DNA of 23,898 nucleotides from Promethearchaeota archaeon (GTDB lineage Archaea > Asgardarchaeota > Lokiarchaeia > Sigyniarchaeales > SOKP01). The position numbers and the translations under genes are program-made. The DNA lies in the NCBI GenBank assembly GCA_016839745.1, contig JAEOTS010000134.1, forward strand, positions 1-23,898. Direction: 5' to 3'. Positions 3,832-20,648 of this stretch are shown piece by piece. The notes below the pieces were generated by a model. That model was given only the letters and a program-made list of their open reading frames with translations, was not told the origin of the DNA and ran no database searches. How positions within the stretch are numbered: the stretch's first letter is position 1; each line of letters begins with the position of its first letter.

Positions 3832-6800
3832 TTATACTGCAACTTCAGTAAGGTAAAGAACAACTAATAACAGAGCCCAAATAATCGTTAGGATTATTAA
3901 AATTATTGTTGTATAAAACCTCCACTTGATTGAAATCTTCTGTTTTTTCTCGATTCTATATATATAAATTGCCAATATTGCTCCTAATATAATTATGGAA
4001 GAAAGTATCAGAATTATACCAAAAAGAAAAGATTCAATGTAAGGTATTATTAATGCGAACACAAAAACTGTAAAACTTATCCAAAGAGTTATAAAACGTT
4101 GCATTCTATTCTTAAAAATCTTATCTATGTCGTCAGTTTTCTTGGGTGGGAGTAAAGAAATAAAAATTCCAGAATTTGCTAATGCTAATAGGGTTGCATG
4201 ATCCCCTCCTAGCAAAGGTATTAAACCAATTTCTTTAGAAAAAACTATTCCCACTGTTATACCCGCAAACACACAAAGAATAATTTCTATAACTCTAAGG
4301 TTATTTTTTAAGAAATTGATAAATGAATAATATACTCTTAGAAGAGAATTCTTTAGCTTGACATATATCAATCTTAAATTGTCTAGTATATTATTGAAGA
4401 AAGCCTTCAATTCTTCCAGCATAAAAACAAATAGGTATAACCAAATTCCTATAAAAATCCATGAGAAACTCCATCCAGATAATGATATATTAAAAGTAAT
4501 TATGCTTAACAACAAGAACAAAACGAGAGAATAGAGGAAAGAGCTAATTTTCTTACGTTTAAATGGTTTAAATAACGCTAAATTTATAATCATAAAGAAT
4601 AACAAAGAAAGGCTAAGATTAAGAATTAAATTGGGATTTACAAAGATTTCTAATGCTAAAAATATATCAAAAGATAATAAAACTTCAGTTAGAATGAAAC
4701 TAACAATCCTTAGATTCTTCCTAATCTTTTCAGTTACAGATTTAATGTTGTTGTCTAAGAATGTCAATCCAAGTAAAATAATAAATGACAAAAGAACTAA
4801 GTTTAGCGAAATAAAGAAATCAAGGCTAAGATAATATAATGGCCAAGTAATTAAATTAAGATAAACTAATCTCACAAGTGAATCTTTAATTTTAGATTGG
4901 TTTGACTTGATAAAATCCCAATCTTTCAATAATCTAAATAGGTAGGCGATTTGTATTATTAGGAGAAATATAATTATCGGTATTATCTGAACAAAGAATA
5001 TGGAAATCCAATCAAGATAGAATAAGAATGAAAATCCAATTAAAATTATCCACGAAAAGCTTATAAAGAAATTCGAGGCCTTTCCTAAAAACTTTAAAGC
5101 ATATTTATCAAATAACGCTAGTAAATGTGTGGTCAGGCTTAAAATCAAGACAATTAAATGAAATTCAAACCCAAAAAGTACTAAAGTATTGAGAATGCTA
5201 CCTAAAAGTAGAAAATAGACACCCCATCCTAATATATTCTGTCTTAAATTCTTCCATTTTTCAAATGAAGTCAATTTATCAGGATTAAACTTCCGCCTAA
5301 TATCGAAATATGAATAATTCGTGTAAAATTGCATTAAAATCGTTAAAAACGCTATTAAAACTAGAGAAAGCATAGAATCACTAAATATCCTATATAAAAT
5401 TATAAAAAGGATCCAAGAGATATTGATAAAACTAAAAGTATGAACTATTTCCATATATCCTTCCTTAAGACGCTTAATAGCATAAATTTCTAATATGCTT
5501 ATCAAGAATAACACAATCTGGGAAAACAATAAGCTTTCATAGAGGGCAAAGAATAACTGAAATAAGCCTAAAAACAAAAGAGAGGCTTCTAGATAAATGC
5601 TAAATATAATAAAAGAATAAATTTGCTTTATATTTTTCTTCCATTTCTCACTTCTAGTGAGTTTTCCTGAAAGATAAATTGTATAAGATGTGAAAATCGT
5701 TTCAGATAATAAAACTAAGATAATCCTGAATAAATCAAGAAGACTAAATATAGTGAAAAAAGATACCCAAAATACCGCAAAAAAGATTTGAAAGAAAATA
5801 AAGGCGCACAATAAAATACTTTTTTTAAGTTTGATTTCGATAGTACGATTTATTAATCCGTTTAGTACTAGCATCAATAAAGAAAAAATCATTCCAGAGA
5901 AACTTAATGAAGGATACCCATCTAATAATGGATTATATGTTATTAATAAACTACTTAACAATAATGAAATATATAAGCTAACCACGATGAAAATTGAATT
6001 TAATAGAATGTTCTGTATCTGGTTTCTAACTTTCCTTATTTTACTCGCTTCATATTGAGTTAATTTTTCAATGTAATAAGAGAGAGCATAGAGCGTATAA
6101 AATTGTAAAATCAAGAGTATAACTAGATTTAGTACTAATAAAGATGCATCTATCGCGATAAACTGGTTCAAAAACACGAATAGACTAATGGAAGTAATTA
6201 CATACGCTATTAAATTAAAAGCATATATGATTTTTTCGTTAACCTTCTTTATAAGGTGGATTTCGAATAAGGTTGAGATAAAAAATATTATTATGGAAAT
6301 TAAAACTGTTTCAAAGAAGCCAAAATCCACAGCTTCACTAATCAAACTAAAACTCAGAAGTCCAATCTCAAAATGTAATAACAATGAGAGAACCGATTCA
6401 GCTCTAAGCAAACCAAAACCTTTAAGATCCTCTTGAATTTTAACTTTTTTACTATACAACTTACATGGAATTTGGAATAAGGCAGTATAAAGTATCAAAG
6501 ATAATAAAATTATAATAACCGGAGATTGAAATAAAAGATTTAACACCATAAATTGTAAAACTATTAAGATTATTGGAATTGGAAAGGCATACCACAATAT
6601 AAATCGGTATTCGTAGAGTATTGATCTTAGTAAAATTGAATTTACTAAGATAAAAACAGCAATTGCTAAGTAAATAAAGCCAGGTAGGAAATAGTATGTT
6701 AAATAAGAAAGCGTTAAAGATACACCAAGTGATAGAATCGTTAAGGGAATTATTTTTTTTATCGGGATAATCATCCTAAACTTGTTAAATACGAAAAGAG

Positions 6801-9800
6801 AGCCCCCAAATACCGCTATCGCTAGAAATATTGAAAAAAGTTCGAGACCAGGAATCATAATAAGTGTGAAATAAGTGAACAAAGAGAAGTTTATAACCAG
6901 TATTGTGGAGATTAAGGTATTAAAAAAAGTCTTGTTGAGTTTGAGGAGTCTTGATGAAAATAAACTCAAAGCAAGTGTTATAAAAGCAATATTTATTGAT
7001 ATAGGTAAATTTTTGATTATCGCATTTATAATGCTAAAAATTGTAAGAAAAATTCCAACTAAAGAAATAAAATAAGATCCTACGAGAATTATGTTTTTGA
7101 TGTTCTTAAGATTAGGGAAAAATGACAAAATGAGAAAGAATATACCTAATATTATTAGATTGATTGATAAATTAATCTCTAGCGGTAGAAGGATTGCAGA
7201 GAATAAAGTGAAGAGGAAAGTAATGTTTACAACTATATAGAATAACCAAAGAATAGTTATAATCTTCCATAATCTTAATCGATAAATTATTGGTACTAGC
7301 AAAGAAATAGCGAAAACGACAAACACGATATTGGTTATCAGCACATTATTACTAAACACGTTTTGACTAAACCAATATAAGAAAAACAAACTGAAACTCC
7401 AAACTATTATGAGTACTTGAGAAAAATGCTTTTTAATCCACGAATACCAAAATGGTAATGAAAGTAGTATACAAATTACAAAGGATATTATGAAAGAGCC
7501 ATTAATGCTTAGTATGTCAAAGAAATTTAGAGCATTCGTATAAATATTGACATTTGTAAATATCTCATTAATGAGATAGAAATTAACAAAAGGGACTAAT
7601 ATCCAAAGTCTCCAACCAGTTTTCCAAATTGCCCAGGAAAACTTCCAGTAATAAATTCCGATTGATATGTAAAATAGAGCTATTCCAATATTAATCGTTA
7701 TTAAAAACAAGAAGGTATCCCATAATGGCAGAGAAAGTAGAGCATTTAAGAAGAAATACATAAACACAGGAAAAGAAATTGTGTAAATTGAAAATGCGAT
7801 ATAAAAGCTTATTTTTCTGAACTTTTCAGGTGTTTTATTGTATGTTCCTACATAGGCAATCCCTGTAATGGTTGAAGTTAATGTGAAAGTTAGTATTGGA
7901 TTAAAGTTCATAAAGATAGGGTTATTAAAGAGGATAAAATAGGATAGATAACTCATAAAACTAAAAGTTAGTAGTAGTACGCATGGTCTAATAAACCATT
8001 TATAGCGCTCATCTTTTTGTCTATAGAAAAAATTTCCAGTTAATATTAGGAATATAAATAAAGAAATTGATATGTTGTAAATCAAAGGTATACCTGTATT
8101 TATAATTAATAACAAAAGCGAGGTTATGGAGATTAAAGCGTATAGCGTAAATTTTTCGACCACATTTGTTTTCTTCATGTTGAATACGATTGATAAAAAT
8201 AATACTAAAATCATAGAAAAACCATAAATGAAAAAATAAACTGTGAAATAAGAAAAACTAAATGTGGGAATTAGCATATAGAGATTTAATGTGAAAATCG
8301 CTTTAACAAATATAAACCAACTAAGAGAGATATAAAATATTATACGAAATATAAAATTGCGATTCCTATTAGATATAAATAAGAAAAGCGGCATTAAGAA
8401 GAGTATATAAGAAAAGTATTCGAAAATAATTGGAAATATAGAAAAAAGAGAAAATAAAACCAGTAATGAACCGCTGAATATTTTTATCATTCTAAATTCT
8501 GATGCTCTTTCAATTATAGTATCAAATTTAAGTATATAGTAATTAAGAAACAGATATATAGCACATAGTACAAGTATGATTTGGAGTGCCTGATTCGAAC
8601 TAAAAAATGGAATATTGGAAGAAAATATCCAGAATAAATCAACAAAAATAATTATTAAAGCTAAAGAAAAAAGATAGAAAGTGAGTTTCTTAGATAATCT
8701 CAATGACTCATCAGAAATGGAAAATATCCTTCTTAAATAATAAATAGTAATCGGGCTCATAAAGATGATGATTAGAAGTGGTAATACTAACCTTAAAAGG
8801 ATAGAAATTTGAATAGGCAGAATAAAAATATAAAGAATAATAAGCAATTTAATAAAAATCCAAGCTGAAATTTCGAAAATACTTTTAATTTTTAAGAAAT
8901 CTACTTTAAATAAATATCCACAAACTGCTGAAATGATTAGATATATCGACATGAATATACCTAAATTAGTAATTGTAATTAAGAGTAAAGATTCTGGAAG
9001 ATACAATAGAGAGAGTAAGCTATGAGACGGTATTATTAGTGCTAAAATAGCAGCTATAGAAGTTATAATGGCAAAAAAAGAGATATTCTTGGTGTACTCG
9101 TATATTTTATAGATTTTATAATAATCAAATTTACTTACATCGTATTCGAAAATTCTTTGTTTTAGGTTTTCTAGCAGAATTAAAATGGCAAGGTTTATAA
9201 TGAAAAAAGTCAGACAAGAACAACTTATATTTAGCCAAAAATTGGTTGTTATAGAATCTATTAAACTATAAACCTTTAAGGCAATAAGCACAGATATCGT
9301 TATCCAGATAACAATCTGGGAGGTTTTAAGAGAAACAATACGATTTTCTTTGAGCTTATATTTATCAAAAAGAAATTCCAAGAATCTCAAAAATCCAAAA
9401 AATAAAAATATTGTAGTAAGGATTATGAAATAATAATCAATAACCATTCCAAATCTGATTAGCTCCAATCCTATTATAGTTGGAAGGGACATAATTAACG
9501 CAGATATTAACAGACTATCTACCAATAACATTTTTTCTACAAGTTTACTGAAAACCTTCTTGCTTGAGGAATAAAACAATGGAAGTAGCATTAGTAAGCT
9601 AAAAACTAACAGAGGAATAACAAATACAAGAACCGAGTTATTAGTTAATAAATATATGTAGTAAGAGCTTAGAACGCTTGTAAAACTTAAAGCTAAGATA
9701 TTAATCCCAATTGCACTCTTATCTGAAAAAATTATTCTATTTTTAGATAAAATATTGATGATAAAGCAAATTAGAATAGTCGAGAAGTACGCTGATAAAA

Positions 9801-11970
9801 CGGGCTCTATTAGAATTAGAAAAATTGAAAACAAAATGGCATAAACTTCTAAAATTATAAAGATATTGACCATAATAGAATACTTTTTAAAAGATTCACC
9901 TGATAGTAGGTTTAATTTTGCTCCAAACTTAAAAATATAATAAGAAACCACGGTAATAAAAAGAATATTAATCAAAATTAACACAATTAAAAAGAAATTA
10001 AAGAAATTAAAAATAACAAAAAAATTCAAGGCGAATATAGCCAGAGATATAAGAATAGAGCAATAAAAATGATATTTTAAGAAAGTAATAGGATTTAAAA
10101 CAGTTTTTTTTGACAAATAAAAAATAGGAATGTATGAAAGAATGCAAACAATAATAAGGGGTATGAAATAAATAAAGAAAGTTCCAACTGTGAAGATAAC
10201 GCTATAATATCCGGCAATAAATATACCAAAATAAAATGTGATTGTGTTTAGAATCATTGCCGGAAATTTAGGAAATAATTTTTCTTCCCTTGATGATATG
10301 TGAAAAATAATGCTAATTATAGATAGTGATAAGAAAGACGATATGAACTCATCTAAAGGAAGAAAAGTGGTAAAAACAGTAAAAAGCAGGACAAAAATTT
10401 CTATTATGATAGGATAACTTAATATGTTTAAGATAAACTTCGAGGACGATTCTTTTAACCGATTTATTTTCTTGCCAAACAAGATGAGAAGAACAAGACA
10501 AAATGTAAAGAATAGAATGTTTAATAGCGTTCCTAATATGAAATCGGCACTAAAATATATGTTAATGATAAAAAAGTTTAAAACAAAAATTAAAACCATT
10601 AGCACCCATGAGGAAGTGTAGCTATATAATGCTAGAACTTTAGGTTTTATGACATTCTCCTTATAGAGATAATACAATGGGGCATATAATAAAAAGCAGA
10701 AAATAACAGGAACAACAAGATAAAAATAGAAATAGTCAATATTAGCTTCTATAAAATAAAATCCAACAACATATATGTCAAATGCGAAAATGAAAGATGT
10801 TAATATTAATTTCATTTTTCTTGAAATTAATTTCTCGTACGGAGATAAGAGATTAAAAATCACTCCAATAATAGAAAGTGAAAGAAATATAGCAATAACC
10901 GGGTTAAATATAAAAACTATATTGAAAATTCCATAAAATAAGAAGAAAATTTCAAGCAAAAGAGCATAAAAATATATTTTAGCGATATTTAAGAAGGTAT
11001 TTTCTTCGATTTTTTTTATTACAGTTCCAAATTTTAGGTTTAATAGCGATAAAATCGTAAAAAAGATTAAATCAAATAATAAGATTACATAAGTATTCCA
11101 ATAAAGGGCTATTATTATAAGGAACATGGAGGAAATTAAAAACCAGAAAGTAACATAGGTGTAAGATAAACTTACTTCACGAGAGAATACTTTTATAATG
11201 TAATTTAATAATACAAATGATAGAAAAGCAGCTGAAATTAAAATCGTTGATAAAAATAAATCTCTTTGCAATAATTCAGGAACACCCAAAACGATATTTT
11301 TTAAGTTAACTAGTATAAACCAGTTCAATTCAATTAACAAAAATACGAATATTACGCAAAAATTAAAAAATCTCCAAGGTTTTGCATATAAATGAGCTCG
11401 TGCGTATAAGAAATAAAACGAAATTAATGTAATTATCAAAACAATAATTGAATGGATCAAAGTTTCAGAAATTAAAATCAAAATTGGATCTAATGTAAAA
11501 TTAATGTATACGAATTCAACAAGTGGAAAGAACGAATATAAAATTATGGTAAAACTAGTAACTGCAAGAATATTTTGTATGACAAGAACATTTTTCTCTA
11601 TAAAATAGCCTAGTTTCATAAAAATTTGAAAAATGAAATATAGAGATATACTAAAAATTATAAATTGTATATTAATGAGCGTTATTCCAAGGTAAGTTGG
11701 GGATATCCAAAATGCCACTAAAGCTAAGATTACTAAGCAATTAATCAGATATATATATCTACTATAAACTTTAAGAGTAAAATTCAATTTTTCTTCGATG
11801 TATGTAATAATGAACATTACTGGTAAGGAAAGGAAAAATACAACCAGAGTATTATTCAACAGAGAAATTAAGAGAGTTGCTAGAATTAAAAGAACCGAGA
11901 CAACGAAATTTAGCTTTTGATAGCTTCTATTATTCTCTAGATCAACTTCTTCAGAATTACTCGAATTCAT
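3832..11970 (-). CDS. Giant polytopic membrane protein (~2,710 aa) with internal TM repeats, function unknown
   Basis: 8.1-kb open frame, hydrophobic over almost its whole length with short Lys-rich loops. ATG 11970 (MNSSNSEE) follows a GAGG RBS and overlaps the end of the upstream gene; the track's longest start is 12000. Confidence 0.9.
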   Translation of the reverse strand: MNSSNSEEVDLENNRSYQKLNFVVSVLLILATLLISLLNNTLVVFFLSLPVMFIITYIEEKLNFTLKVYSRYIYLINCLVILALVAFWISPTYLGITLINIQFIIFSISLYFIFQIFMKLGYFIEKNVLVIQNILAVTSFTIILYSFFPLVEFVYINFTLDPILILISETLIHSIIVLIITLISFYFLYARAHLYAKPWRFFNFCVIFVFLLIELNWFILVNLKNIVLGVPELLQRDLFLSTILISAAFLSFVLLNYIIKVFSREVSLSYTYVTFWFLISSMFLIIIALYWNTYVILLFDLIFFTILSLLNLKFGTVIKKIEENTFLNIAKIYFYALLLEIFFLFYGIFNIVFIFNPVIAIFLSLSIIGVIFNLLSPYEKLISRKMKLILTSFIFAFDIYVVGFYFIEANIDYFYFYLVVPVIFCFLLYAPLYYLYKENVIKPKVLALYSYTSSWVLMVLIFVLNFFIINIYFSADFILGTLLNILFFTFCLVLLILFGKKINRLKESSSKFILNILSYPIIIEIFVLLFTVFTTFLPLDEFISSFLSLSIISIIFHISSREEKLFPKFPAMILNTITFYFGIFIAGYYSVIFTVGTFFIYFIPLIIVCILSYIPIFYLSKKTVLNPITFLKYHFYCSILISLAIFALNFFVIFNFFNFFLIVLILINILFITVVSYYIFKFGAKLNLLSGESFKKYSIMVNIFIILEVYAILFSIFLILIEPVLSAYFSTILICFIINILSKNRIIFSDKSAIGINILALSFTSVLSSYYIYLLTNNSVLVFVIPLLVFSLLMLLPLFYSSSKKVFSKLVEKMLLVDSLLISALIMSLPTIIGLELIRFGMVIDYYFIILTTIFLFFGFLRFLEFLFDKYKLKENRIVSLKTSQIVIWITISVLIALKVYSLIDSITTNFWLNISCSCLTFFIINLAILILLENLKQRIFEYDVSKFDYYKIYKIYEYTKNISFFAIITSIAAILALIIPSHSLLSLLYLPESLLLITITNLGIFMSIYLIISAVCGYLFKVDFLKIKSIFEISAWIFIKLLIILYIFILPIQISILLRLVLPLLIIIFMSPITIYYLRRIFSISDESLRLSKKLTFYLFSLALIIIFVDLFWIFSSNIPFFSSNQALQIILVLCAIYLFLNYYILKFDTIIERASEFRMIKIFSGSLLVLFSLFSIFPIIFEYFSYILFLMPLFLFISNRNRNFIFRIIFYISLSWFIFVKAIFTLNLYMLIPTFSFSYFTVYFFIYGFSMILVLFLSIVFNMKKTNVVEKFTLYALISITSLLLLIINTGIPLIYNISISLFIFLILTGNFFYRQKDERYKWFIRPCVLLLTFSFMSYLSYFILFNNPIFMNFNPILTFTLTSTITGIAYVGTYNKTPEKFRKISFYIAFSIYTISFPVFMYFFLNALLSLPLWDTFLFLITINIGIALFYISIGIYYWKFSWAIWKTGWRLWILVPFVNFYLINEIFTNVNIYTNALNFFDILSINGSFIISFVICILLSLPFWYSWIKKHFSQVLIIVWSFSLFFLYWFSQNVFSNNVLITNIVFVVFAISLLVPIIYRLRLWKIITILWLFYIVVNITFLFTLFSAILLPLEINLSINLIILGIFFLILSFFPNLKNIKNIILVGSYFISLVGIFLTIFSIINAIIKNLPISINIAFITLALSLFSSRLLKLNKTFFNTLISTILVINFSLFTYFTLIMIPGLELFSIFLAIAVFGGSLFVFNKFRMIIPIKKIIPLTILSLGVSLTLSYLTYYFLPGFIYLAIAVFILVNSILLRSILYEYRFILWYAFPIPIILIVLQFMVLNLLFQSPVIIILLSLILYTALFQIPCKLYSKKVKIQEDLKGFGLLRAESVLSLLLHFEIGLLSFSLISEAVDFGFFETVLISIIIFFISTLFEIHLIKKVNEKIIYAFNLIAYVITSISLFVFLNQFIAIDASLLVLNLVILLILQFYTLYALSYYIEKLTQYEASKIRKVRNQIQNILLNSIFIVVSLYISLLLSSLLITYNPLLDGYPSLSFSGMIFSLLMLVLNGLINRTIEIKLKKSILLCAFIFFQIFFAVFWVSFFTIFSLLDLFRIILVLLSETIFTSYTIYLSGKLTRSEKWKKNIKQIYSFIIFSIYLEASLLFLGLFQLFFALYESLLFSQIVLFLISILEIYAIKRLKEGYMEIVHTFSFINISWILFIILYRIFSDSMLSLVLIAFLTILMQFYTNYSYFDIRRKFNPDKLTSFEKWKNLRQNILGWGVYFLLLGSILNTLVLFGFEFHLIVLILSLTTHLLALFDKYALKFLGKASNFFISFSWIILIGFSFLFYLDWISIFFVQIIPIIIFLLIIQIAYLFRLLKDWDFIKSNQSKIKDSLVRLVYLNLITWPLYYLSLDFFISLNLVLLSFIILLGLTFLDNNIKSVTEKIRKNLRIVSFILTEVLLSFDIFLALEIFVNPNLILNLSLSLLFFMIINLALFKPFKRKKISSFLYSLVLFLLLSIITFNISLSGWSFSWIFIGIWLYLFVFMLEELKAFFNNILDNLRLIYVKLKNSLLRVYYSFINFLKNNLRVIEIILCVFAGITVGIVFSKEIGLIPLLGGDHATLLALANSGIFISLLPPKKTDDIDKIFKNRMQRFITLWISFTVFVFALIIPYIESFLFGIILILSSIIILGAILAIYIYRIEKKQKISIKWRFYTTIILIILTIIWALLLVVLYLTEVAV

Positions 11971-12919
11971 CAATTTCAAACCTCTTGAGTATTTTGTCAT
12001 AAAATGTACTTACATACAATCTGATTTTGAAGTAGAATAATAAGAAGATGAGAGATAATATCGAAATAGTAATGATTTCAATAATCTGATGTTGAATACC
12101 CGAGTAAATATAAATAAAGGTTATTACTAATGGCATTTGAATCAATAATGCGAACATTAAGCTTAATAATGAATTTACAAACTTTCTCTTATATTTAGTC
12201 AACTCCAATAGAAATTCTTTGCTATTTTTAGTTAACTTTGATAAATTCTTTATGTTTTTCATAGTTGTAAGTCGGGAAATAAGATAAAATACTAAATTCG
12301 AAATAAGTGGAAACAACCAAGAAACTTTAGTATAGAATGTATAAGAGAGAAATATGATATGAATGATATAATTGACAATAACTATGAGATTATATGGTTG
12401 TTTAATCCATTGAGAAAATGGTGTTTCATGTTTGTATTTCTCTTCATTATAGTCAAAATTGTCTATAGGTTGAAAGAAATAGTAATAATACACAATATTG
12501 TAAAGTATGCTAAATGATATTAAAGGTAAAAGCTCAAATTTTTTACTTGGAGTAAAAAAAACAAAAATAGGAGGAGGGAAAATAATGAAAATAGGAGTAA
12601 CTATCAAAGCTAAGATCGTAATTAAGAAAATAATATTAATTCTAGCAGATAGGTTGTTTTTTTTATTCAAGAAAAATGGATTATTTCTATATTTATCAAA
12701 AGGTTTGTAGAAAAACAATAATACGAACATGAATGTTATAACTGATAAACCAATTGAGACATAAAGGTCTTTTCCAATAAAGAAATAAATGAAAAAACCT
12801 ACTACAGCGACTAAAGAAGGTACTATGATTAAATAGAAACTAAACCACCAAATCTTCCAGAGCGATTCGGTGACTTTTTCAATTTTATCTTCAGAACTTC
12901 CGTTTTTATTAGATTTCAT
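11957..12919 (-). CDS. Hypothetical integral membrane protein (about 8 TM), first gene of a putative operon with the giant membrane protein
   Basis: Multiple hydrophobic segments; the 3' end overlaps the start of the giant ORF. Confidence 0.8.
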   Translation of the reverse strand: MKSNKNGSSEDKIEKVTESLWKIWWFSFYLIIVPSLVAVVGFFIYFFIGKDLYVSIGLSVITFMFVLLFFYKPFDKYRNNPFFLNKKNNLSARINIIFLITILALIVTPIFIIFPPPIFVFFTPSKKFELLPLISFSILYNIVYYYYFFQPIDNFDYNEEKYKHETPFSQWIKQPYNLIVIVNYIIHIIFLSYTFYTKVSWLFPLISNLVFYLISRLTTMKNIKNLSKLTKNSKEFLLELTKYKRKFVNSLLSLMFALLIQMPLVITFIYIYSGIQHQIIEIITISILSLIFLLFYFKIRLYVSTFYDKILKRFEIDEFE

Positions 12920-13069: not shown

Positions 13070-14392
13070 TTAACAAAACTCTGGAAGATAATTTTTTTGC
13101 AATTCCTTCATTTCTTCAAATATTTTGTCAGCCATTTCGAAACTTCCTACATTGGGATCAATCGCTAAAGCTGCTATTGCTAAGTCCTTCGATTTTTGAA
13201 GGATAGCTTCAACACATAGATCTTGGATAGTTGCTTCAATTCGAAGTAAAGCGGCAATATTAGTTGGTAATTTACCCCATTTAACTCCATTTACTCCCTT
13301 CTTATTGACTATTACGGGACACTCAATTACAAGATCCTTAGGTAGATTTTCGATGATGTTGTCATTTGGAATATTAACTGCACTTTCATAAGAATTACTG
13401 TCAGCAATAATTGCTTCGATAATTGGAATTGCTCTTTCTACTGAGGTTCCTTTATAGAACATTCCTTTTTTGAAATACCTTCCTTCTTTTAGACGCTTAT
13501 AGTTTCTCATGATACGTTTATATGTCCTCTTACCACCTTTTTCAGCAAAGTCAATCCAATCTGTCATATCAATAGTTTCAGTAAATTCTTCACCAAACCG
13601 TAAGTATTCACCAAGATGATTATCCCCTACGTACGGAAAATAGCCAAATCTTTTGAAAACTTCAAATGTTAATGAAGAAAATTCGAACCTTTCTTGATGT
13701 TGTTTAAAATACTCTGGAGCTATCTTGTTAAATTTCGGCATTAAATCCATTCCGGAAGAGATTTCCTCAATCCCCATTAAAAATCCAAAATGATTTAATC
13801 CATAAGGTTTTAGTTTTAAATTCTCAAATTTTATTTTGAGCATTTGAGGTAAATGGAATGTCATAGCTCCAATTTGATGACAAAGGCCTATAAATTTAAG
13901 ATTCGGAACTGTCCTTTTAATAGCTAAACATACCCTCGCCATTGGATTAGAAAAATTTATAAAAAAAGCATCAGGACATATATCGTTCACATCTTTTACA
14001 ATTTCCAAAATAGGAGGAATTACTCTAAATGCGTGCATTGTTCCCCCTGGTCCTCCGCATTCACCTAATATTTGAATCGACCCATATTTTCTTGGGATTT
14101 CGTAATCTTCTCTCCATAATTTATAACGATCTCCAACCTCTATTGAGCTTATAATAAAGTCTGCTCCATTCAATGCCTTTTTACGGTCTGTAGTGCGAAT
14201 AATATTAAATTCATTATTATGTATCTTGTTTTCAGCTTCGACTAATTCAAACATGACTTCCAAATGTTCTTTGTTGATATCATGTAGCACTATTGTTGAA
14301 CCTTGTAAAAGATTGCTCTGGTAAAGATCTAACAAAGAAGATGGCCCAAAAGAGGTGCTTCCAGCCCCAATTAGAACGATTTTTTTGTCCAT
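13070..14392 (-). CDS. Glycoside hydrolase family 4 (NAD+/Mn2+-dependent alpha-glucosidase/alpha-galactosidase type)
   Basis: KIVLIGAGS Rossmann motif, GECGGPGG, INFSNPMA, GLCH (metal-binding Cys), GLNH, DNHLGEY, ALAIDP. Confidence 0.93.
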   Translation of the reverse strand: MDKKIVLIGAGSTSFGPSSLLDLYQSNLLQGSTIVLHDINKEHLEVMFELVEAENKIHNNEFNIIRTTDRKKALNGADFIISSIEVGDRYKLWREDYEIPRKYGSIQILGECGGPGGTMHAFRVIPPILEIVKDVNDICPDAFFINFSNPMARVCLAIKRTVPNLKFIGLCHQIGAMTFHLPQMLKIKFENLKLKPYGLNHFGFLMGIEEISSGMDLMPKFNKIAPEYFKQHQERFEFSSLTFEVFKRFGYFPYVGDNHLGEYLRFGEEFTETIDMTDWIDFAEKGGKRTYKRIMRNYKRLKEGRYFKKGMFYKGTSVERAIPIIEAIIADSNSYESAVNIPNDNIIENLPKDLVIECPVIVNKKGVNGVKWGKLPTNIAALLRIEATIQDLCVEAILQKSKDLAIAALAIDPNVGSFEMADKIFEEMKELQKNYLPEFC

Positions 14393-14503: not shown

Positions 14504-14553
14504 AATGGGAAAAAATACCCACAATATTTATTAGTGTACACTCTTTATATATT
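14504..14553 (+). promoter_or_regulatory. Putative archaeal promoter of cassette 1
   Basis: AATGGGA (14504), TATA-like ATTTATTAGT (14526-14535), TTTATATATT (14544); same elements and spacing as 15141-15190. Confidence 0.55.
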
Positions 14554-14565
14554 GTTAATAATGAA

Positions 14566-14752
14566 TTTTTCGCGACATAATACTGATTCATGGGTAGGCT
14601 GCAAGAGCGCCATTATTCCCACAGTATTATGAAGAGAATAAATCCTTATACCTTCTCTTTTTCTTTTTAATTGTTAGGATTTATTCTCTGCGCATAATGT
14701 CTATCAATTTTCAAGAAAAAGTGGGATAAGGGTTTAATTCTTGACGCAAAAA
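14566..14752 (+). ncRNA. Predicted structured RNA / 5' leader, cassette 1
   Basis: Perfect inverted repeats: CATAATACTG 14576-85 / CAGTATTATG 14622-31 (10 bp); AGAGAATAAATCCT 14633-46 / AGGATTTATTCTCT 14676-89 (14 bp); TCAAGAA 14711-17 / TTCTTGA 14738-44 (7 bp). Confidence 0.6.
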
Positions 14753-14774
14753 TCAAAAATCAAAAATCAAAAAT
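14747..14774 (+). repeat. Tandem heptamer (CAAAAAT)x4
   Basis: Four exact copies directly abutting the GGAGGTGA RBS at 14775. Confidence 0.95.
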
Positions 14775-14790
14775 GGAGGTGAAAAAAGAA

Positions 14791-14967
14791 TTGGCAGATA
14801 ATAGAGAATCTGATCCCATATTGGAGTATTATAAAGATTGGAGTTCTGATCTTGCGCCTATTATGATGTCATTTGACATCTCAGATGCCTATCCTGGTAG
14901 GATTGAAAGTGAAGACCAGAAAAAAATAGCTTATCTGAGACGTAAATATCAAAAACTATCAATATAA
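14791..14967 (+). CDS. Small protein A, 58 aa (MADNRESDPILEYYKDWSSDLAPIMMSFDISDAYPGRIESEDQKKIAYLRRKYQKLSI)
   Basis: GGAGGTGA RBS at 14775-82, 8 nt before TTG 14791. The track's ATG at 14773 overlaps the RBS and is in the same frame. T-rich terminator-like run follows. Confidence 0.7.
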   Translation: MADNRESDPILEYYKDWSSDLAPIMMSFDISDAYPGRIESEDQKKIAYLRRKYQKLSI

Positions 14968-14997
14968 TTTTTATTTTTTTCTATTTATTTTTTTCTA
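14968..14997 (+). terminator. Oligo-T archaeal terminator-like tract
   Basis: Several runs of T immediately after the stop codon of small protein A. Confidence 0.5.
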
Positions 14998-15190: not shown

Positions 15191-15195
15191 CTAAT

Positions 15196-15403
15196 GATCT
15201 TAAATATTACTACTAAATATTCAATTGTAAGAGTTATAGGTCTTTTATTAGTTGTGGTAGTAGTAGTATTATAGATGAGAGCCGATCCTTTTCGATCTTC
15301 TTTTTAATCTTTTCTTGGATATGCTCTCTCATCAAAGAATCTAAATTAAATTGAGATCTTAATGGATTCCGGCACCTCAGAAGAATAAAAAAAATGGAGG
15401 TGA
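15196..15403 (+). ncRNA. Predicted structured RNA / 5' leader, cassette 2
   Basis: AATATTACTACTA 15203-15 / TAGTAGTAGTATT 15258-70 (13 bp, one G-U); GATGAGAG 15274-81 / CTCTCATC 15326-33; GAATC 15337-41 / GATTC 15365-69; anti-SD CACCTC 15373-78 / GAGGTG 15397-402. Confidence 0.6.
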
Positions 15404-15407
15404 AAAA

Positions 15408-15587
15408 ATGGAAAAAGAAGTTCTTGATAAACTTGAAAGTCAGATTGCCTTAGAAAATAATTCGATTTCTATTAAGGAGGAAAACAAACATTCTGACGAA
15501 AGTACATTTTGGAAATACCTAGATTATTCAAACTGGATTCCAGGAGAAATTGAAATTGAGGAAGAAATTACTAAAGATTATGATTAG
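15408..15587 (+). CDS. Small acidic protein B, 59 aa (MEKEVLDKLESQIALENNSISIKEENKHSDESTFWKYLDYSNWIPGEIEIEEEITKDYD)
   Basis: Manually translated; GGAGGTGA RBS at 15396-403 just before ATG 15408; shares a motif with small protein A. Missing from the ORF track. Confidence 0.7.
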   Translation: MEKEVLDKLESQIALENNSISIKEENKHSDESTFWKYLDYSNWIPGEIEIEEEITKDYD

Positions 15588-20547: not shown

Positions 20548-20648
20548 AGCCTCCGACGGGAATTGAACCCGCGACCTGCAGATTACAAGTTTCAGCAATT
20601 AATCGAAGTTAATTAAATTCTGCTGCTATACCGCTAAGCCACGGAGGC
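20548..20648 (-). tRNA. tRNA-Thr(UGU) with a 29-nt intron (20591-20619); CCA not encoded
   Basis: Acceptor stem GCCTCCG/CGGAGGC plus U discriminator; anticodon stem GCAGA/TCTGC with loop CTTGTAA after intron removal; T arm GCGGG-TTCAATT-CCCGT. Confidence 0.93.

Follow-up and report, generated by a model that had tools for sequence, protein, structure and literature searches.

The 5' leader of ORF1, about 230 nt long and referred to here as Leader 1, probably belongs to a paralogous family of translation-sensing, attenuator-like leaders that encode a leader peptide and occur in one Asgard family. From its sequence, the element is best filed as a predicted new archaeal variant of ribosome-mediated attenuation, within which Leader 1 is atypical in having no codon run. 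Among the three regulatory logics put forward in a preliminary description of this DNA (riboswitch, attenuator or thermometer), that of an attenuator provides the best fit, given a conserved upstream ORF (uORF) of leaderless type, the location of its stop codon at a strand contested by two helices and the codon runs found in the paralogues. The uORF, which overlaps hairpin 1, was absent from that description.

Genomic setting of Leader 1

The window analyzed in this work (23,898 nt, with a G+C content of about 30%) comes from a Promethearchaeota (Asgard) MAG of Lokiarchaeial type, whose 192 contigs add up to 3.5 Mb at a completeness of 89%. Leader 1 is located in a 380-nt gap that separates its left neighbor, a GH4 glycosidase gene on the minus strand (13070-14392), from the small ORF1 on the plus strand, and all the leader features given below lie likewise on the plus strand. 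Elsewhere in the window, an ORF of 2722 residues (3832-12000, minus strand) occupies a stretch of lower G+C content (about 26%), and a 101-nt tRNA (20548-20648, minus strand), detected by Rfam with 55 bits, was missed by ARAGORN, presumably because of an archaeal intron inside it.

ORF1 (14791-14967) encodes a 58-residue microprotein that is conserved in 47 loci. These microprotein-encoding loci, obtained through a pattern search, constitute our set of homologues, and the leader is found directly upstream of ORF1 in all of them. BLAST identifies the leader region as single-copy in its own genome, and its DNA identity ranges from 64 to 88% in 23 of the 24 sampled genomes of the genus, a degree of conservation equal to that of the small ORF. 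ORF1 begins here with TTG; at the same position, and behind a perfect Shine-Dalgarno (SD) sequence, the start codon is TTG in 18 loci, ACG in 15, ATG in 9 and CTG in 5, and three of the loci starting with ACG present no canonical in-frame start nearby. The ATG at 14773 proves to be out of frame when a close relative is examined. The microprotein has no Pfam match, its AF2 model is poor (pLDDT 61), too poor for a structure search, and the gene is followed by an oligo-T terminator of its own (14970-14996).

Two partners for a contested strand

The domain is closed by helix P0, which joins 14565-14574 to 14745-14753 and is supported by the minimum free energy (MFE) fold and by pair counts. Within it lie hairpin 1 (P1, 14576-14631), with an outer stem at 14576-85/14622-31 and inner pairs at 14591-94/14618-21 and 14597-99/14609-11, and the contested strand X (14633-14646), which can pair with either of two downstream segments. 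The proximal partner, Y (14676-14689), makes up a perfect 14-bp inverted repeat with X in the window, while the distal one, D (14713-14742), pairs in the MFE fold with X and with the U-rich stretch L (CTTTTTCTTTTT, 14657-14668, containing two T5 runs) to generate the long hairpin P2. L therefore serves as the loop in one state (X-Y) and as the 5' strand of a helix (L-D) in the other. A CATAAT element (M, 14693-14698) constitutes an alternative partner for the 3' strand of P1, and its pairing extends X-Y to a helix of about 22 bp. An A-rich linker with AAAAATC repeats (14754-14781), unpaired in the MFE fold, ends in the SD sequence GGAGGTG (14775-14781), which is invariant. Four tandem AAAAATC units are present at 14747-14774 in this genome only, its relatives having one or two, and a 19-nt block containing the SD of Leader 1 is repeated at 15390-15408.

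All the segments named in the preliminary description were verified at their coordinates in the window sequence, as were the pairings proposed for them. The segment TAAATCCTTAT (14639-49) lies partly inside the hairpin formed by 14633-46 and 14676-89, and pairs alternatively with 14726-36 over 11 bp; CTTTTTCTT (14657-65) is complementary to AAGAAAAAG (14713-21); ATTATG (14626-31) may partner with CATAAT at 14576-81 or at 14693-98, and TCCCAC (14617-22) with TGGG (14591-94) or GTGGGA (14721-26). The proposal that these helices are mutually exclusive holds for X-Y versus the long hairpin, but not for 14639-49/14726-36 and 14657-65/14713-21, which are compatible, nested parts of one long imperfect hairpin belonging to the MFE fold. 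The true conflict is that between the local 14-bp hairpin (X-Y) and the long hairpin, in which X and L both pair with D. When 14560-14760 was subjected to 2000 dinucleotide shuffles, 46 of these yielded an uninterrupted stem of 14 bp or more, and only 8 a pair of 14-bp and 11-bp helices competing for the same strand.

Folding energetics and strand asymmetry

The plus strand folds at -58.5 kcal/mol (z = -3.9 with respect to shuffles) into the long hairpin and the hairpin at 14576-14631, whereas the fold of the minus strand is weaker (-53.2 kcal/mol). When sequences are folded singly, the long hairpin is the MFE structure in 22 of 22 species and X-Y is essentially unpopulated. In the full-length RNA, adopting X-Y costs about 10 kcal/mol relative to the MFE and its probability at equilibrium is about 4e-7, so that the RNA is not bistable in thermodynamic terms: instead of the bistable switch initially envisaged, a single fold (the long hairpin, with X-D) dominates at equilibrium. 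The preliminary description had taken a single dominant conformation, together with alternative helices that are not conserved, as arguments against a switch. The first of these is what we observe at equilibrium, but the second does not apply, for both pairing alternatives are kept at the 47 loci.

According to these models, switching, if any, must be kinetic or ribosome-driven. In the folding of growing prefixes, the combination of P1 and X-Y is the best structure up to about 14712; L-D and X-D take over once D appears, from about 14725, and P0 is the last helix to close. X-Y would thus be a co-transcriptional state, either kinetic or held by a ribosome, as predicted from this folding series. 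The direct-path estimate for the barrier to X-Y refolding, 27 kcal/mol, is an upper bound.

The comparison of strands also bears on the notion that the inverted repeats are a DNA-level feature, serving as operator sites for a transcription factor. The region is indeed palindromic and yields minus-strand self-matches, and conserved motifs of the TGGG/CCCA kind lie on either side of the TATA box and again within P1. Nonetheless, the many G-U pairs (with 16 instances of UG at one X-Y pair) would read as A-C mismatches in the opposite strand or in double-stranded DNA, the fold of the plus strand is the more stable of the two, and the spacing of the arms is variable. The frequency of G-U pairs and the asymmetry between strands point to a feature of RNA rather than DNA, and we deem operator sites an exceedingly unlikely explanation.

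Conservation and covariation of both folds

Pair counts were obtained on a covariance-model alignment of the 47 leaders. The closed fold (Fold I, consisting of P0, P1 and P2) has 81% of its cells paired, as opposed to 50-55% in slid controls, and a covariation score of 0.20, as opposed to 0.07-0.11; none of 500 shuffles attained these pairing and covariation values. The outer stem of P1 is 94% paired, with a CG to AU exchange in 11 sequences, and P0 has 76% of its cells paired, with changes on both sides in 5 of its 9 pairs in the 47-leader alignment. Helices 7 and 8 of P2 are 82% paired, a figure to be read against the slid controls for the whole of Fold I, and helix 8 by itself (14657-65/14713-21) is likewise 82% paired. 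For X-Y, the proportion of paired cells in the 47 sequences reaches 98.4%, with a series of exchanges typical of RNA (UA, UG, CG) at one pair and a CG to AU exchange at another, and the RNAalifold consensus of 22 sequences consists of hairpin 1 plus X-Y. The extension that M forms with the 3' strand of P1 is 85% paired, against 43-55% in slid controls of the whole X-Y+E structure, and in M the alignment column 121 varies in step with both its partners. Inspection by eye of the leuS leaders described below did not reveal the M pairing.

Realignment of the distal arm with a covariance model was little better than MAFFT, and the pair counts for P2 thus probably understate its pairing. For this reason, we added an alignment-free test comparing cognate and non-cognate duplexes in 87 distinct leaders. 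The duplex energies favor cognate partners for both X:Y (-18.8 versus -12.7 kcal/mol) and X+L:D (-23.7 versus -16.4 kcal/mol), whereas the L:Y control duplex yields -3.2 kcal/mol in both cases. Matrices by paralogue type are largely diagonal-dominant for X:Y and X+L:D, and the own partner is always the best, although X strands of the leuS type show little preference for the partners of other leuS leaders over those of the frhB type. The strands of P1 pair better within their own leader than across types in the case of ORF1-type leaders, but this is inconsistent across types, and for the P1 5' strands of the leuS and frhB types some cross-type partners are about equal or better. In an alignment of mixed types, both sides change in 8 of 13 X-Y pairs. 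As judged from these sequence comparisons, X is co-evolving with both Y and D and both pairings appear to be under selection. The mutually exclusive helices first noticed in Leader 1 are thus conserved and co-varying across 87 related leaders.

A pseudoknot intermediate combining X-Y with L-D is sterically plausible, and the same two helices could be envisaged as a static H-type pseudoknot, in which the U-rich loop of X-Y pairs permanently with the A-rich part of D (14657-65/14713-21). Both helices are conserved and mutually compatible, and the required geometry appears compatible with the length of the linkers (10, 10 and 23 nt). The static version, however, leaves aside the X-D pairing (14634-49/14726-42), which is also conserved and co-varying and excludes X-Y, and we consider it distinctly improbable.

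A run of at least five T residues is present in the L region of 79 of the 87 leaders, making L a candidate archaeal oligo-U terminator or pause site. Since the U-rich loop resembles the oligo-T terminator of ORF1 itself, the suggestion in the preliminary description that the loop may act as a terminator that is exposed or masked stays plausible.

A leaderless-type ORF within the leader

Alignment of the upstream regions of the 47 loci delineates a promoter region (14505-14534) in which an ATGGGAA...CCCAC motif pair precedes the TATA box ATTTATTAG (14526-14534). The motif pair may be a transcription-factor site. At 14505-14523 it has the form ATGGGAA..(A)CCCAC in this clade and that of a direct repeat (ATGGGAA..ATGGGTA) in others, and TGGG/CCCA-like elements are found also inside hairpin 1. 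The TATA box ends 26 nt 5' of the ATG of the uORF (MNFSRHNTDSWVGCKSAIIPTVL, 14561-14632), which contains hairpin 1 and comprises 23 codons and a TGA (14630-32). There is no SD before this ATG, and the spacing between TATA box and ATG is the same in all four leader types. In view of the usual architecture of archaeal promoters, a spacing of 26 nt predicts a leaderless or near-leaderless message.

The uORF is open in all 47 homologues, in which it spans 23-32 codons and falls into at least six length classes, with every indel a multiple of three. The other frames are shut within 0-5 codons in most homologues, with 12 of the 47 keeping one open for 20-22 codons. P1 is formed by the two ends of the uORF, and in nearly all the 87 leaders the uORF stop codon is followed immediately by the first base of X. 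The exclusive helices are thus placed relative to the leader ORF, with X beginning after its stop, in the manner demanded of an attenuator. On these grounds, the uORF of Leader 1 is a conserved leader ORF of leaderless type, with a predicted start and predicted translation. It ends in ..AIIPTVL, without a homopolymeric codon run, and candidate regulatory codons in the strict sense are hence carried by the paralogues and not by Leader 1.

A family of paralogous leaders

A second copy, Leader 2 (15194-15402), was found in the window through nhmmer (E = 2e-5) and a covariance model derived from Leader 1, and it scores 44.6 bits with model R1 and 95.9 bits with R2. It lies upstream of ORF2 (15408-15587), and its uORF (15194-15274), ending in LLLVVVVVVL, is followed by the elements X' (15275-88), Y' (15317-32), D' (15364-73) and anti-SD (15373-78). 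The latter, a CACCTC directly after D' that is complementary to the GAGGTG of the SD, was observed in 9 of the 10 Leader 2 copies inspected (GCCTC in the remaining one), and Leader 1 has no counterpart of it. A third member in this genome (G000:C43:6731-6949; locus L090, 1500-1718), with a uORF ending in ..SLSIIILAVLII, precedes a 474-residue fusion of FrhB_N/FrhB_C, the beta subunit of an F420-type oxidoreductase, with a TrmB helix-turn-helix. In relatives, copies are located before the gene for an archaeal-type leucyl-tRNA synthetase (leuS), and a DNA search over 42 genomes of the genus returned 30 loci, of which 28 are leuS leaders. All copies share the same layout: an ATG-initiated uORF whose ends form P1, its stop, X, an oligo-U tract, Y and D.

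The peptides encoded by these uORFs are poorly conserved apart from type-specific runs of Leu, Ile or Val. Those of the leuS leaders end in Leu runs (..DLLAVLLLLL, ..LLGYLLLALLLL, ..VLLQALLQLLL) that are spelled with varying synonymous codons (TTA/TTG/CTT/CTA/CTG), those of the frhB-trmB leaders have Ile-rich ends (e.g. ..SLSIIIVAVLIR), and those of the ORF2 leaders carry Val/Leu runs that vary in length by whole GTA/TTA triplets, beyond what P1 pairing needs. The hydrophobic runs could be, in part, a by-product of U-rich hairpin strands.

The family-wide model, R2, detects one to four copies per genome, with a gap in scores between 70 and 38 bits. It identifies family leaders in 87 of 101 sampled genomes of one taxonomic family, where the same gene classes recur in other genera, and in none of 19 sampled genomes of three sister families. 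A mobile repeat was considered and rejected, the leader being single-copy by BLAST and its relatives occupying one to four fixed loci per genome. The ValRS, MetRS and bacterial-type LeuRS genes of this genome have no such leader, the last of them (..YPYPSSDLHMGH..) being located at G000:C68:17914-20718, and the assembly, at 89% completeness, yielded no archaeal-type leuS of the kind that carries the leader in relatives.

The paralogues are also relevant to the other two logics mentioned in the preliminary description, those of a metabolite riboswitch and a thermometer, in which a ligand or heat would select between the helices. The presence of alternative helices in a long archaeal 5' leader, and the z-score of its fold, are consistent with both. 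A riboswitch is not supported, given the lack of any Rfam family at the gathering score or at E-values up to 10, the search returning only chance miRNA-like matches, and given the interior of P1, which is wholly different between paralogues and behaves as coding sequence, leaving no conserved aptamer. A thermometer finds little room in an MFE fold that places the SD in an unpaired, A-rich linker, even if the unpaired probability of the ribosome-binding site (RBS) window averages about 0.5, so that the evidence on its pairing is mixed. Moreover, the codon runs track the downstream gene, which speaks against both. Taken together, we regard a riboswitch or thermometer as very unlikely.

Proposed mechanism

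In the mechanism that we propose, the partner of X would depend on where the ribosome stands in the first round of translation, while transcription is still under way. A ribosome stalled on the last codons of the uORF would hold P1 open and leave X free to pair with Y, a ribosome at the uORF stop would cover X and, with no ribosome present, P1 would form and X-Y would later yield to X-D. The choice made by X would then set the expression of ORF1 through the number of polymerases that pass the conserved oligo-U tract or the number of surviving transcripts. The distance between the uORF stop and the U-tract is about 26-32 nt, and a ribosome at the stop would hence trail closely behind a polymerase at the U-tract. 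In the paralogues, the signal sensed would be the supply of charged Leu, Ile or Val tRNA, whereas Leader 1, whose last codons are only mixed (Ile-Ile-Pro-Thr-Val-Leu), may for this reason report on the general status of translation or coupling. Coupling- or factor-dependent termination (FttA/aCPSF1) and transcript stability are the candidate outputs.

With regard to these outputs, no bacterial-type terminator (i.e. a hairpin directly followed by a U-run) was detected after either fold, and a search of Leader 1 for an output element in the form of an intrinsic terminator or an RBS-masking helix returned none. The oligo-U tract is located upstream of Y and D, and these segments cannot therefore affect a termination decision made at that tract. 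A switch based on SD sequestration was also considered and rejected, because simulated ribosome footprints barely alter RBS accessibility in any leader type. For the RBS of ORF1, the mean unpaired probability goes from 0.51 in the absence of a ribosome to 0.46 when one is stalled in the run and to 0.42 when one has reached the stop. The simulated ribosome leaves RBS accessibility unmoved, and so no output step was identified.

Much of this would fit a static structured leader without any switch, in which P0, P1 and P2 stabilize or protect the 5' end of the mRNA, or amount to an independent small RNA, while X-Y is a harmless folding intermediate and the uORF peptide has a function of its own. 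The long hairpin is the MFE structure in every species folded, X-Y is unpopulated at equilibrium, no terminator hairpin or masked RBS was detected, and the 5' end is held in P0. Yet few segments are as conserved as Y, whose covariation with X extends over four paralogue types, a pattern that one would not expect of a by-product. In every type, moreover, the uORF stop borders directly on X, and the peptides are poorly conserved except for precisely the type-specific Leu, Ile and Val runs. We thus view a static leader as unlikely, and retain translation-sensing attenuation as the preferred reading.

A more ambitious version of attenuation can be put forward, although we find it slightly harder to accept than to doubt. 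It posits ribosome-mediated attenuation in archaea as a branched-chain amino-acid 'ribulon', with up to four leaders per genome (leuS, frhB-trmB and two microproteins), leaderless uORFs and an output through oligo-U or factor-dependent termination or through coupling in place of a bacterial terminator hairpin, and in it Leader 1 would report on general translation. If true, ribosome-sensed control by amino acids would exist in Asgard archaea, the closest prokaryotic relatives of eukaryotes, and these leaders would provide a natural system for the study of archaeal coupling, of oligo-U or FttA termination and of leaderless initiation. It would also place two microproteins and an frhB-trmB fusion in the response to branched-chain amino acids.

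Comparison with known systems

Leader-peptide attenuation is a textbook bacterial mechanism that requires coupled transcription and translation, and its classical ribosome-mediated instances include the trpL, leuL, ilvL/ivbL and pheM-pheST systems of E. coli. A search of the published literature returned no archaeal leader-peptide attenuator. The leaders analyzed here share with the bacterial attenuators a short leader ORF, codon runs matching the downstream gene (e.g. Leu before leuS), mutually exclusive helices that ribosome position could select and a U-rich tract in the leader. On the other hand, they occur in an Asgard archaeon, their uORF is of leaderless type where the bacterial ones are SD-led, and the system is known here from sequence alone. 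The regulatory codons occupy the last positions of the uORF, on the 3' side of the hairpin that the uORF itself forms, and X has two downstream partners, as opposed to the 1:2, 2:3 and 3:4 chain of the bacterial leaders. Furthermore, no terminator hairpin adjoins the U-run, and Leader 1 is devoid of a homopolymeric run. Attenuators of leuS and trpS have also been predicted in Streptomyces (PMC1262725). The classical attenuators, including that predicted for Streptomyces leuS, are the closest systems in logic.

A different likeness is apparent with the polycysteine attenuators of mycobacteria, which are leaderless short ORFs (Canestrari et al., 10.1101/834739) and in which ribosome stalling disrupts a duplex that otherwise occludes the RBS of the following gene (10.1101/834739). 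In both cases a leaderless sORF with a codon tract for a single amino acid is the first cistron, the design is found at several loci (a 'ribulon') and the ribosome would act as the sensor. The Asgard leaders differ in that simulated ribosomes leave RBS accessibility unchanged, in their use of branched-chain amino acids instead of Cys and in their archaeal host. The mycobacterial sORFs are nonetheless the closest analogues in deploying a leaderless sensor ORF at several loci.

In the tna operon leader (TnaC) and others, translation of a uORF controls factor-dependent termination. In the archaeal setting we can purely infer that the factor involved would be FttA/aCPSF1, and not Rho. As in TnaC, the stop of the leader ORF adjoins an RNA segment whose accessibility would matter, and a ribosome located there would cover it.
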